Origin: an uncultured Bacilli bacterium
GTDB taxonomy: Bacteria > Bacillota_I > Bacilli_A > RF39 > UBA660
Direction of reading: 5' to 3'
DNA: 64,000 nt
NCBI GenBank assembly: GCA_947628235.1
Contig: CANQZC010000006.1
Location: 8,727 to 72,726 of the forward strand
Below, one piece after another: positions 44,241 through 47,897 of this stretch; within the stretch, counting starts at the first letter, position 1, and every line of letters starts with the position of its first letter. The notes beneath the pieces are model-generated. The model saw only the letters and a program-made list of their open reading frames with translations. It was not told where the DNA came from and searched no databases. A program made the position numbers and the translations under genes.

Positions 44241-44272
44241 TTTATAATTCAATCAATTCGTATTCTCTAGAA
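44241..44272. repeat. 32-nt direct repeat copy 1 (TTATAATTCAATCAATTCGTATTCTCTAGAAC)
   Basis: 31/32 identical to 47866-47897; each copy lies next to a different palindromic hairpin. Confidence 0.8.
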
Positions 44273-44298
44273 CAAGACCAATATAAATATTTTATCTC

Positions 44299-45282
44299 CT
44301 ATAAACTAAACTCTGTTATTTTAGTACCATCTTTCTTTGTAATTAAGTAGTTCTTTCCTTTTTTGAATACATAAGTATCATCATAAATATAATAGGTATT
44401 ATATTTGGCATCCATATATTCTTTACCATTTATGTCAATCAAAACAATATAGGTTCCATCATCTTTTTTTACTTCTGCAAAAATCCTTTCTGGATTTTCA
44501 TCATCAAAAATGAAATTACTATACTTTCCTGGTTCTATTACATAATCCCCGTTTGTATCAATTAAACCAGTTCCTGTTTCATTTCCTACAACAGCATAGC
44601 CAAAACTATTGAATTCGTGCTTTGTATCAAAATTTTTATCTTCAAATATAGGTTTATTATCTTTATAGTATGTTGACTCATAGTAGCTTTGATATAAAGT
44701 TATTTCAGGCTCTTTTTCTTCCAGAGCTTCTACTTCATTACCCTTTGTATCGATATAGATGGTTTCCCCATATGCTGGCATAACTTTTGCAATACCATTT
44801 TTAAAGGAATTACATTCATAGAATGTTCTACCAAATAATTCATTACCTTCTTTATCAATGTAGACATTTTGGGTTGTTCCAGCTGTGGAAACACAAGCCA
44901 TTCCCTCACTAAAATTAATTCTATAACTCCTCTCATAAGTATAGCCAGATGCGTACTCATATTTAGGTTCAATAACAAACTCATTTTTATTATTGATATA
45001 TCCTACTTTTCCATCTTTTACAACTGCCGCTAAACCATCATAGAAACCATAAGCAGCATCATATTGTAAATCTATTACTAATTTTCCATCAGCATTTACA
45101 TAGCCCCATTTAGCATCATTATACAAAGTTCCTGTATATACTGGATATAAATTTTCATTGACATTAGAAGAAGATTCATTTGAATCTTTCAGACTGTTGA
45201 CAAACAAAAAATTTGAAAACAATCTGAGACTATCATTTCTGATAGTCTCATATAGATCATTTATCATTTTCATCGTCACCAA
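44299..45282 (-). CDS. WG-repeat (KWG-like beta-repeat) containing protein
   Basis: Recurrent WGY.N..G..VI.P.YD.A..F.DGLA.V segments. Confidence 0.65.
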   Translation of the reverse strand: MVTMKMINDLYETIRNDSLRLFSNFLFVNSLKDSNESSSNVNENLYPVYTGTLYNDAKWGYVNADGKLVIDLQYDAAYGFYDGLAAVVKDGKVGYINNKNEFVIEPKYEYASGYTYERSYRINFSEGMACVSTAGTTQNVYIDKEGNELFGRTFYECNSFKNGIAKVMPAYGETIYIDTKGNEVEALEEKEPEITLYQSYYESTYYKDNKPIFEDKNFDTKHEFNSFGYAVVGNETGTGLIDTNGDYVIEPGKYSNFIFDDENPERIFAEVKKDDGTYIVLIDINGKEYMDAKYNTYYIYDDTYVFKKGKNYLITKKDGTKITEFSL

Positions 45283-46021
45283 ATAAATTAAATGAATTTA
45301 TTTCACCAGTCTTTTGTCCACTTCCATTTTTAAATTCGGTAGTTTTGATGCCACCACCCCAGTCGTAAGTTGTTGAACTACCTTTATAATTTCCAAATTG
45401 ATCAGTATAATGAACAGTTTTGAAAAAAGGTTTGGACTTTTTATTCTCGTGTTGATCATTATTATCATTATTATTTTTGTAAATATTTATATTACTACCA
45501 ACTGCATGTTCGATTGGTTCTCCTTTATAAGAAATAAATAAAAATGGTAGTGTCAAAATAAATGAAACAATTATAGATGTAATAATACCTTCTTTTTCCA
45601 TTAATGACATAACGAAAAACGCTATCATAATAGAATACATAAAACATTTACCGGCTAAATATCTATCCATTTTTTGCTTATATTCTACATTATATTTTAC
45701 TCTATATTTCTGATTCACTTCATCAGCATATGGATGCTTAACTACTCCATCATCTGGAACATATTTAAAAACTTGTGTTTTAATCAGGATAAATTGAAGA
45801 ATTCTGTTAAAAATTTTTGAAATAATATAACCAATGATTATATAAACATAAAATACCAATATATTCATTTTCTCATCTTTACTTGAAAATCCTGCAATAG
45901 CAATGGTTAAAAATCCAAATAGGCAAGACAAAAAGCAGAATATTAACCGTTGTTTCAAATTGTATTGATTATATTCATTTTTATACTTGTTTTCCTTTTT
46001 ACTTAATTTCATATATAACAT
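45257..46021 (-). CDS. hypothetical membrane protein (4 TM) with Gly/Asn-rich C-terminus
   Basis: 254 aa; 26-nt overlap with downstream WG-repeat gene (translational coupling). Confidence 0.5.
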   Translation of the reverse strand: MLYMKLSKKENKYKNEYNQYNLKQRLIFCFLSCLFGFLTIAIAGFSSKDEKMNILVFYVYIIIGYIISKIFNRILQFILIKTQVFKYVPDDGVVKHPYADEVNQKYRVKYNVEYKQKMDRYLAGKCFMYSIMIAFFVMSLMEKEGIITSIIVSFILTLPFLFISYKGEPIEHAVGSNINIYKNNNDNNDQHENKKSKPFFKTVHYTDQFGNYKGSSTTYDWGGGIKTTEFKNGSGQKTGEINSFNLFGDDENDK

Positions 46022-46120
46022 CCCCTACTCCATTATAAATAAAATTTTTACCAAGAAGAATTACATACAATATACTCAATATTTTCTTTTTCATATCACT
46101 TTACTCTCTTTCTCTTTATA

Positions 46121-46160
46121 CTTTTATTATATATATATATATATATAAAGTCAATATGAA
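46121..46160 (-). promoter_or_regulatory. promoter copy 1: TTGACT - TT(TA)10 - overlapping TATAAT
   Basis: Minus strand TCATATTGACTTT(TA)10ATAA; -35 TTGACT at 46149-46154, (TA)10 at 46128-46147; about 100 nt upstream of 45257..46021. Confidence 0.55.
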
Positions 46161-46247
46161 TAAAAAAATGGAAAAGAAAAAGACTATCATTTCTGATAAT
46201 CCTTTTGTTATTAATTTTCTTCTAGTTCATGTTTAAGATAAAGTATA

Positions 46248-47273
46248 CTATTCCTCTAGTTCGTCCCATTCCTTTTCTGTTGATTTTTCAAATGAATTAG
46301 TGCGAATATTAAACTTGTAATAGTCATACTCATTGGTTTTCTTATCGACAATATATAGAATCATAGTATCATCATGCCATATACTATCAGATACCTCAAA
46401 GCCATAAATGCTTATTGATATTTTAGAATCTAATTCTTCTTTTATCTTATCAAAATCTTCTTGTTTATTAATATCATAGACTTTATATAGTTCGTCTAAA
46501 GCATCATTATAAACCCCTTTTAAAAATTCATATTTATCTGTTACCTTTTTCTCTTTTCGAATTTTATCATAAGAATCATTATCATATTTAAATTGTGAAG
46601 TTATAAAATCTTTTGCTTGTGGGAACTCTTTATATGATGTTTCTGCTGCTAGCATTAATGAGGTAGAAAAAACAGCACTATCCAATAACAATATGAGAAC
46701 ACTTGCAGCCATTAAAGTGAAATCGAACCCATGTTCTCTTATCTCATTTATTATATTAATAATAATTAATGGGATAAAAATTCCATATAACATTCTTGGA
46801 ACATATCCATAATAAATTAGGTTTAGGAATATTGAATGTGGAGGATTAATAAATGAATTTATTAAGAATACAATTAATATTATTGCCTCAATCATTACTA
46901 TTCTTTTGCGTTTAATAGACTTAGTATCTTCATTTTCCAACGCTTTATCCTGCTGCTTATTATTCTTAATTCTTATTTTTTTACCATAAAATTTAATATA
47001 CTCGCTATCTTCTTGTTTCTTTTTCGTAAATAAATTTTTTATTTTTCCTAAAACATCTTTAAACTCAATAAAAGTTTGATTACCAAACATAGCATATCGA
47101 ATAAACCTCATTAGTTCAATGGAAGAAATTACTATAACAATAATTGCTTCAACATATAGGTCTGTAGCACCTGCCATCTCTAATACCAAAAAATAGACTA
47201 TAAGAGGAAATACTTCATCTAGGCCAACTCCAATTGTTAAAAAAACGATAAATAAAAATAGAAACATTCCCAT
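46248..47273 (-). CDS. hypothetical membrane protein (N-terminal TM domain, acidic soluble C-terminal domain)
   Basis: 341 aa, ATG start, 4-5 TM helices. Confidence 0.5.
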   Translation of the reverse strand: MGMFLFLFIVFLTIGVGLDEVFPLIVYFLVLEMAGATDLYVEAIIVIVISSIELMRFIRYAMFGNQTFIEFKDVLGKIKNLFTKKKQEDSEYIKFYGKKIRIKNNKQQDKALENEDTKSIKRKRIVMIEAIILIVFLINSFINPPHSIFLNLIYYGYVPRMLYGIFIPLIIINIINEIREHGFDFTLMAASVLILLLDSAVFSTSLMLAAETSYKEFPQAKDFITSQFKYDNDSYDKIRKEKKVTDKYEFLKGVYNDALDELYKVYDINKQEDFDKIKEELDSKISISIYGFEVSDSIWHDDTMILYIVDKKTNEYDYYKFNIRTNSFEKSTEKEWDELEE

Positions 47274-47336
47274 AATTACATACTCCTAACTTTATAAGTT
47301 TATACTTCCTATCCCTTTGAGGCTAATTACTTTTTA

Positions 47337-47376
47337 TACTCTTATTATATATATATATATATATAAAGTCAATATG
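47337..47376 (-). promoter_or_regulatory. promoter copy 2: TTGACT - TT(TA)10 - TATAAT (duplicate of 46121-46160)
   Basis: Shared ~45 nt with copy 1 including (TA)10 at 47346-47365; about 65 nt upstream of 46248..47273. Confidence 0.55.
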
Positions 47377-47413
47377 ATAATTTTAAAATAGCATAAAAAA
47401 ATACTAGCTAACA

Positions 47414-47698
47414 CTAGTACTTTTTATTATTCATATATTGTTTAAGTGATAAACTTGCTTTAAATGTTACCACCCTTTTTGGAGAAATTTGAATAATATC
47501 CCCGTTTCTAGGATTAATCCCTTTTCTTTCTTTTCTATCATTCACTTTAAATGTACCGAATCCCGTTAGGACAATTTCTTCTCCATTATCTAATTCATTT
47601 CTTATCGTATCAAAAATAGCATTATATATGGTATCAACATCTTTTGATTTTATTTTAGCTGTTTTAGCTACTTTATCTATTAGTTCTGTCTTATACAT
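47414..47698 (-). CDS. HU/IHF family DNA-binding protein (additional HU paralog)
   Basis: 94 aa; GFGTFKV..R.ER.GINPRNG..I.I....V.FK; own TTGAAT-17-TAAAAT promoter upstream. Confidence 0.85.
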   Translation of the reverse strand: MYKTELIDKVAKTAKIKSKDVDTIYNAIFDTIRNELDNGEEIVLTGFGTFKVNDRKERKGINPRNGDIIQISPKRVVTFKASLSLKQYMNNKKY

Positions 47699-47848: not shown

Positions 47849-47866
47849 AGACTGAAGAATCAGTCT
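47849..47866. terminator. palindromic terminator (AGACTGAAGAATCAGTCT) at DUF362 gene end
   Basis: Perfect 7-bp stem + A/T runs; overlaps stop codon by 1 nt. Confidence 0.6.
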
Positions 47867-47897
47867 TATAATTCAATTAATTCGTATTCTCTAGAAC
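47866..47897. repeat. 32-nt direct repeat copy 2 (overlaps the last 10 codons and stop of 47866..48738)
   Basis: TTATAATTCAATTAATTCGTATTCTCTAGAAC, 31/32 to copy 1. Confidence 0.8.

Follow-up and report, generated by a model that had tools for sequence, protein, structure and literature searches.

Are two neighbouring membrane protein genes of an uncultured gut bacterium transcribed from promoters that are switched by slippage of a dinucleotide repeat? The question is raised by a stretch of 64,000 nucleotides (nt) of contig CANQZC010000006.1 (hereafter the window) from an uncultured Bacilli bacterium of the rabbit gut, in which a promoter-like element with ten TA units occurs twice on the minus strand, once upstream of a gene for a membrane protein of 341 amino acids (aa) and once upstream of a gene for one of 254 aa. 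As far as phase variation of gut commensals is known, invertible promoters and methylation switches prevail in it, and promoter switches driven by repeats have been reported mostly from mucosal pathogens and mycoplasmas. Here, we propose slipped-strand phase variation of two insulated promoters, predicted to be ON at ten TA units (n = 10) and low or OFF at n = 9 or n = 11, and put the probability of this reading at roughly 0.7. The mechanism itself is not new. What would be new is the host, an uncultured gut bacterium with a cell wall and low GC content, in which the (TA)n spacer switch would present itself as a clean case for comparative analysis.

A duplicated promoter element with a TA tract in its spacer

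The window contains a 51-nt direct repeat in two copies that are 94% identical, each with (TA)10, and outside this core a weaker likeness (about 81%) reaches to about 80 nt. The modules and their parts are the following (window positions):

47327..47377, minus strand: promoter module copy 1, 51-nt direct repeat 5' of the 341-aa gene, the top-scoring promoter-like site regionally
47367..47372, minus strand: -35 hexamer TTGACT of copy 1; ATATTGAC is kept in all aligned relatives
47346..47365, no strand assigned: (TA)10 tract of copy 1, occupying 16 of the 17 spacer positions, its final four bases being the first four of the -10 hexamer
47344..47349, minus strand: -10 hexamer TATAAT of copy 1, composed of the two last TA units and AT; TATATAAT is invariant in the alignment of the relatives
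46109..46159, minus strand: promoter module copy 2, 51-nt direct repeat 5' of the 254-aa gene
46149..46154, minus strand: -35 hexamer TTGACT of copy 2
46128..46147, no strand assigned: (TA)10 tract of copy 2, a perfect repeat
46126..46131, minus strand: -10 hexamer TATAAT of copy 2

Read along the minus strand, the two copies have the form TTGACT-17 nt-TATAAT and match the consensus at 11 of 12 positions, and the two modules are the top two promoter-like sites within 44-48 kilobases (kb). An earlier note on this DNA had described a duplicated promoter element with the tract exactly between -35 and -10, which is borne out; its spacer of about 18 nt has to be corrected to 17 nt, the optimum -35/-10 spacing. 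The distance of about 65-100 nt that it gave between element and genes is likewise to be corrected, to 70 nt from the end of the -10 hexamer to the ATG for the 341-aa gene and to 104 nt for the 254-aa gene. The spacer consists of a T and the first eight TA units, so that its length follows 2n-3 and amounts to 17 nt at n = 10.

The census of TA tracts over the 64 kb counted nineteen (TA)3, one (TA)4, none of five to nine units and the two (TA)10. From first-order composition, about 1e-6 tracts of at least ten units would be expected in a sequence of this length, and none of the shuffles yielded (TA)7. The GC content of the window is 31.6%, and runs of A or T of at least 9 nt are absent from it. 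The repeat observation is real and far beyond chance.

Each module lies directly 3' of an intrinsic terminator and, consequently, each gene should rely on its own module for transcription. The terminators, together with the hairpin that closes the 254-aa cassette, are:

47390..47425, minus strand: intrinsic terminator at the end of the HU gene, insulating copy 1 from read-through; hairpin followed by a U run, RNA fold of -12.0 kcal/mol, z = -3.8
46165..46206, minus strand: intrinsic terminator 3' of the 341-aa gene, insulating copy 2; hairpin GGATTATCAgaaaTGATAGTCT followed by a U run, RNA fold of -12.4 kcal/mol, z = -3.5
45225..45250, minus strand: hairpin at the end of the 254-aa cassette, duplicating that at 46181-46201 (repeat match 45227-45247)

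The hairpin of the 341-aa terminator is also present in two related metagenome-assembled genomes (MAGs) from the rabbit gut, L084 and L095. An invertible promoter was considered as well and rejected: the modules are direct repeats, inverted matches are confined to the self-complementary TA tracts, and no recombinase domain was found among the neighbouring genes.

Tract length in near-identical contigs

The tracts were compared in seven contigs that encode an identical 341-aa protein, namely the MAG of 'uncultured Bacilli bacterium' Lapin-020__bin65 (L001), which originates from rabbit gut, and six rabbit-gut metagenome assemblies (L002-L007). The numbers of TA units are as follows:

Window: copy 1 n = 10; copy 2 n = 10
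L001: copy 1 n = 9; copy 2 n = 9
L002: copy 1 n = 9; copy 2 deleted
L003: copy 1 n = 9; copy 2 n = 9
L004: copy 1 n = 9; copy 2 n = 8
L005: copy 1 n = 11; copy 2 n = 9
L006: copy 1 n = 10; copy 2 n = 9
L007: copy 1 outside the contig; copy 2 n = 10

Thus, 14 tract calls were obtained from eight assemblies including the window: one with n = 8, eight with n = 9, four with n = 10 and one with n = 11. This agrees with the earlier note, which had predicted that the TA copy number would vary across strains. In L005, 2058 nt were matched to the window and the sole differences are one TA more in copy 1 and one TA fewer in copy 2; in L006, 1793 nt were matched and the sole difference is one TA fewer in copy 2. 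In these alignments, the TA tracts are the fastest-changing sites of the locus. Moreover, tract lengths are unequal inside single contigs (9/8 in L004, 11/9 in L005 and 10/9 in L006), which indicates that the two copies change independently. The co-ordinated switching of both genes that had been read from the presence of two copies is contradicted by these pairs, which point to independent, combinatorial change instead.

Three further differences were observed around copy 2. The T7 run at 46162-46168, just 5' of the -35 hexamer of copy 2, is T8 in L001-L004 and represents a second, minor length polymorphism. A 116-nt deletion in L002 (positions 1500-1530; window 46028-46143) extends from inside the copy-2 tract to just before the start codon of the 254-aa gene, so that -10 hexamer, leader and ribosome-binding site (GGAG) are all missing; in this low-coverage contig, the deletion may represent a locked-OFF variant or else an error of assembly. 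In L007, which is otherwise identical, eight mismatches cluster in an 80-nt stretch early in the 254-aa gene (window 45893-45970) and suggest a short recombination tract.

The same design in relatives and in other bacteria

An orthologue of the 341-aa gene encoding a protein of 58% identity (L008) is preceded by the promoter TTGACT-TTATAAATTTATAAATA-TATAAT, the 17-nt spacer of which is that of (TA)10 with three substitutions and an unchanged register. Based on this match in register, we take 17 nt as the probable functional spacing and n = 10 as the putative ON allele. Hexamers and register are conserved by alignment both in the orthologue and in paralogous cassettes. In L084, a module with ATATTGACTtaa(TA)9AT and a 17-nt spacer stands before the gene of a 179-aa membrane protein, and a second module, comprising the same hairpin followed by ATATTGACTaaa(TA)12AT and a homologous leader, stands before the gene of a 191-aa paralogue (38% identity, covering about half of the query); the direct homologue of the 254-aa gene in this MAG lies behind an ordinary TGTTATAAT promoter. 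The tract before the paralogue is (TA)12 in L084 as compared to (TA)10 in a second sample, in which the encoded protein is identical. Long pure repeats are therefore kept before these diverged genes, where they also vary between samples.

The occurrence of the design beyond these relatives was followed by an exact scan for TTGACTT followed by at least seven TA units in one genome per species of 185,579 species. The scan returned 47 sites, 35 of which continue with AT and thereby make TATAAT; an open reading frame (ORF) on the same strand follows within 150 nt at 36 of the 47 sites, and 24 of these 36 ORFs have a start resembling a signal peptide or a transmembrane (TM) segment. In Anaerococcus spp. 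(L011, L023, L028, L039, L049; assemblies of cultured strains plus one MAG), the sequence TTGACTT(TA)nATGGTG has conserved flanks and n = 10, 7, 11, 11 and 7, and the promoter lies 34 nt 5' of a surface-protein gene. The product combines a signal peptide with helical repeats and has an NVQTG-type anchor at its C-terminus; it is likely a phase-variable surface protein. Four identical modules in an Oscillospiraceae MAG (L013, L022, L027, L044), all with (TA)10 and more than 45 nt of identical flank, precede paralogous type-IV-pilin-like genes (MRKMNKKGFTIVEL...). Multi-copy sets were also found in a Hadza Eubacteriales MAG (five sites, n = 7-10) and in a Spiroplasmataceae MAG (three sites, n = 9). 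A single scan of metagenome contigs with a gapped form of the module pattern gave unrelated promoters only and no TA tracts.

A proposed spacing switch and competing explanations

Following this, we propose that each module is a promoter of the housekeeping sigma factor (sigma-70/sigmaA-type), in which T + (TA)n separates the hexamers, and that replication slippage gains or loses TA units and thereby shifts the spacer in 2-nt steps, giving 13 nt at n = 8, 15 nt at n = 9, 17 nt at n = 10 and 19 nt at n = 11. Only n = 10 would reach the optimum and lead to strong transcription, and n = 9 or n = 11 would give weak or no transcription; both the dependence of transcription on n and its reversibility are inferred. 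The upstream terminators would leave each gene dependent on its own switch, and with two independent switches a population could contain both membrane proteins in all four ON/OFF combinations. For the window strain (10/10) the prediction is ON/ON, for the reference MAG (9/9) OFF/OFF. The selective agent is presumably phage, host immunity or competitors acting on the envelope proteins, and the switch would mark the two proteins as probable targets of fluctuating selection by such agents. Three features by which a repeat-driven promoter-spacer switch may be recognized from sequence, i.e., a slippable perfect repeat (at least about seven dinucleotide units), its position between the hexamers and a polymorphic length, were all found for this candidate.

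Several points weigh against this proposal. A second -10-like hexamer, TATAAA, is conserved 7 nt downstream of TATAAT. The commonest allele, n = 9 (8 of 14 calls), is OFF in the model and would also fit a promoter that works independently of n, although a majority of n = 9 is consistent with a costly contingency gene as well. Variation between samples is no proof of switching within a clone. Finally, most of the comparison contigs are low-coverage metagenome assemblies with a k-mer coverage of 2-3, and in three of them the contig end falls at or close to module 1, in two cases within it; stutter or assembly error may therefore have affected some of the tract calls.

The first alternative is that both modules are ordinary constitutive promoters and that the TA tract is a neutral, unstable microsatellite, copied along with them and of little regulatory effect. 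Under this explanation the prevalence of n = 9 would come as no surprise; furthermore, AT-rich spacers are common at the GC content of the window and the orthologue in L008 works with a spacer that is not a repeat. However, it is established that a 2-nt change in a 17-nt spacer strongly cuts sigma-70-type activity, with a precedent in hif (PMC2651432), and 35 of the 47 tracts found across bacteria end exactly in TATAAT. In addition, pure tracts are kept before paralogues of 38% identity in a setting where the window is otherwise devoid of (TA)5-9, which argues for selection on the repeat. Neutrality of the tract is therefore regarded as unlikely.

The second alternative attributes the length variation to sequencing stutter or low-coverage assembly artefacts at a duplicated dinucleotide repeat, as the coverage and the contig ends described above might suggest, and the 51 nt common to both copies could additionally confuse an assembler. 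Against this, 6 of the 14 calls are non-modal and the range of 8-11 spans three units, the differing tracts lie internally in contigs L004, L005, L006 and L007, and L005 and L006 are otherwise unchanged over about 2 kb, including the T7 run. Moreover, a MAG and a Logan assembly are two units apart in the independent tract before the paralogue, and the orthologous promoters of Anaerococcus, most of them from cultured strains, range from n = 7 to n = 11. Artefact as the general cause is improbable on these grounds. A practical warning nevertheless follows from the locus: such tracts break metagenome assemblies, and the consensus of a MAG hides ON/OFF heterogeneity.

Probable exchange and possible turnover of the cassettes

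The segment 45293-47473 (2.2 kb, from module 1 to the 254-aa gene) is 99.7% identical to the Lapin-020 lineage, from which it differs by six substitutions, two TA indels and one T indel, whereas its flanks, the DUF362/HU and WG regions, are 5-30% diverged; it ends near the copy-1 module and near the closing hairpin after the 254-aa gene. A near-identical segment in diverged flanks indicates recent exchange of the two-gene cassette by transfer or recombination. Collapsed remnants of the module are located 5' of lipoprotein genes in L001 and L084. One of these genes is the WG-repeat gene of L001 (5010-5140), which starts with a lipoprotein signal peptide (MKKKILSILLIGVLVMGLAGC) and is preceded by the module remnant catattttattatatataataaaaatataaaaag. 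The WG 5' end of the L001 type is replaced in the window (45180-45282) by the hairpin 45225-45250, which leaves the WG protein of the window without an export signal, and the WG-repeat gene of the window may be a pseudogene.

The 3' end of the DUF362 gene (32 nt with the stop codon, 47866-47897) recurs with 97% identity 3' of the WG gene (44242-44273), and the terminator hairpin that comes after this second occurrence is a different one. Direct repeats thereby bracket the 3.6-kb block from HU to WG, consistent with an insertion or with the relic of a second DUF362 copy. Taken all together, the exchanged segment, the module remnants, the deletion in L002, the DUF362 relic and the loss of the WG signal peptide suggest turnover of cassettes at repeated modules.

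In related rabbit-gut MAGs (L084 3400-7900; L089; L095), the homologue of the 254-aa gene adjoins an AbiEii/HTH_3 pair, and the variable island to which they belong has a sortase gene on one side and an Amidase_3 gene on the other. As compared to L089, L084 carries four extra cassettes (a lipoprotein, the 179-aa and 191-aa membrane proteins and a 127-aa protein), and the same terminator hairpin as behind the 341-aa gene (aagattatcagaaatgata[a/g]tc) bounds the cassettes in these islands.

A more far-reaching reading, which we put forward only tentatively and consider rather doubtful, is that the terminator hairpin, the ATATTGACT-(TA)n-TATAAT promoter and the conserved leader together form a portable phase-variable module placed before unrelated envelope genes in this clade of gut Bacilli, and that recombination at the module moves contingency cassettes between diverged lineages. 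The 99.7% segment between flanks of about 92% identity, the remnants, the tract deletion and the variable island content fit this reading. If true, it would represent cassette shuffling in walled Firmicutes that is akin to mycoplasma vlp/vsp/vmc and proceeds without a dedicated recombinase. With TTGACTT(TA)nAT standing also before sortase-type surface proteins of Anaerococcus and pilin paralogues of Oscillospiraceae, repeat-driven promoter switching would then be a widespread form of phase variation in gut Firmicutes that has been overlooked.

The same observations might be explained differently, with module and shared hairpin acting mainly as a recombination junction that shuffles cassettes and promoter activity being secondary. 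The position of the exchanged segment, with its ends at the copy-1 module and the hairpin amid diverged flanks, would be as expected for a junction, as would the 116-nt deletion beginning inside the copy-2 tract, the remnants before lipoprotein genes and the differing content of islands among related genomes. However, genes for a recombinase, integrase or transposase are absent from the segment and from its immediate neighbourhood, the conserved parts are the hexamers and their register, and homologous recombination between any repeated promoters would give the same pattern. A primary role as junction is thus distinctly improbable, and it would be compatible with phase variation of the promoters rather than exclusive of it. 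A supercoiling-sensitive, non-stochastic action of the (TA)10 palindrome through DNA structure (cruciform formation or easy melting), to which the perfect self-complementarity of the tract might point, is highly improbable, since a stable cruciform would hardly be extruded in vivo from as little as 20 bp and since both the length polymorphism in unit steps and the exact 17-nt register would be left unexplained.

Comparison with known repeat-driven promoters

Slipped-strand phase variation at the promoter spacer, the explanation preferred here, has known counterparts. In Haemophilus influenzae hifA/hifB, (TA)9-11 lies between the promoter hexamers, and changes in unit number alter spacing and transcription (van Ham 1993, as summarised in PMC2651432 and PMC3899988). 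The locus described here shares with hif the TA unit, the range of 9-11 units and the position of the tract between -35 and -10, and it would share the effect of unit changes on the spacing and transcription of genes that are putatively of the envelope. By contrast, one tract serves two divergent, overlapping promoters in hif, whereas here two copies in the same orientation serve one gene each. The hosts differ as well, hif belonging to a proteobacterial pathogen and the present locus to a gut commensal of the low-GC Gram-positive type, and so do the products, which are fimbriae in the former and ORFan polytopic membrane proteins in the latter.

The closest architecture is that of Vmm/Vmc in the Mycoplasma mycoides cluster, where poly-TA (N about 10-16) is located in the promoter spacers of lipoprotein genes at several loci per genome (Persson 2002 and Wise 2006, as cited in PMC3053259, PMC2628566 and PMC10502178). 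Vmm/Vmc resembles the present locus in having several genes per genome, each with its own (TA)n, in independent and combinatorial switching, which is predicted for the present locus, in the reuse of a conserved 5' expression region before different coding sequences, and in belonging to the low-GC Bacilli/Mollicutes branch. The comparison rests on promoter architecture: the organism analyzed here encodes cell-wall enzymes, and the locus is outside the Vmm/Vmc protein family, since neither product is a lipoprotein. Lipoproteins are, however, encoded by neighbouring genes of the island, and the leader of copy 2 looks like the relic of a lipoprotein signal peptide. Homopolymer spacer switches are represented by the poly-A of Mycoplasma hyorhinis vlp, the poly-G of Neisseria porA and a tract in Bordetella (PMC3899988, PMC10502178). 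Common to these and to the present locus is that repeat slippage between -35 and -10 alters the spacer length; homopolymers change in 1-nt steps, which makes a graded output possible, whereas the 2-nt steps of TA would be nearer to a binary output.

Genes of the locus and their products

On the minus strand, the gene order from 48.7 to 44.3 kb is DUF362, HU-type, 341-aa, 254-aa and WG-repeat gene, followed by a convergent TetR gene. The genes and the leader are located as follows:

47698-47414, minus strand: gene of an HU-type DNA-binding protein
46248..47273, minus strand: gene of the 341-aa membrane protein, polytopic with about 6 TM segments (hydropathy)
45999..46094, minus strand: leader with a 31-aa ORF (MKKKILSILYVILLG...), overlapping the start of the 254-aa gene and called as a gene in L001
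45257..46021, minus strand: gene of the 254-aa membrane protein, 4 TM segments (hydropathy)
45282-44299, minus strand: WG-repeat gene

The earlier note had referred to both products as surface proteins: hydropathy confirms the membrane part of this description, but the surface part is unproven and the label is a guess. In the 341-aa protein, one loop is rich in K/R and the C-terminal domain (about 130 aa) is acidic; by the positive-inside rule, this domain is probably extracytoplasmic. Its family is tiny, with 4 clusters in 5.8e9 proteins, and that of the 254-aa protein is small, with 6 clusters in one search and 34 representatives in 1.84e9 proteins in another. The latter family has a near-invariant C-terminal motif, KTVHYTDQFGNYKGSSTTYD.G.G.KTT.F (residues 197-240 of the window protein), in a region modelled as four beta strands or a beta-hairpin at a predicted local distance difference test (pLDDT) score of about 80; the membrane part varies.

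AlphaFold (AF2) models of both proteins have a mean pLDDT of 53-54, with the C-terminal domains alone being confident, and Foldseek gave no match in the PDB at E <= 0.001 for either of them. Pfam, PHROGs and PADLOC contained no family for the 341-aa or the 254-aa protein, nor for ten remote relatives, and the homologue searches of both proteins returned only unnamed proteins from MAGs and metagenomes. Exact-protein look-ups of the 254-aa protein, the HU protein and the 31-aa leader ORF of the window gave no record. A lipobox is absent from both membrane proteins, which both carry internal TM segments. Paralogy of the two was rejected (BLASTP E = 0.8).

The first ~28 nt of the 31-aa ORF nearly equal the start of the sequence coding for the lipoprotein signal peptide of the WG gene in L001. 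Furthermore, homologous leaders occur in L084 and L090-L092, where the DNA is conserved before paralogues and the ORF length is variable (22-31 aa). The leader ORF is probably the relic of a lipoprotein 5' end that would now be used as 5' untranslated region.

A phage or plasmid origin of the window is unsupported: the surrounding genes are chromosomal housekeeping genes. The window encodes ThrRS, SufB and MgsA, and a gene of the bile-salt-hydrolase family is present as well. Of its 54 ORFs of at least 180 aa, 50 are located on the minus strand, and a strong strand bias is typical of low-GC Firmicutes.

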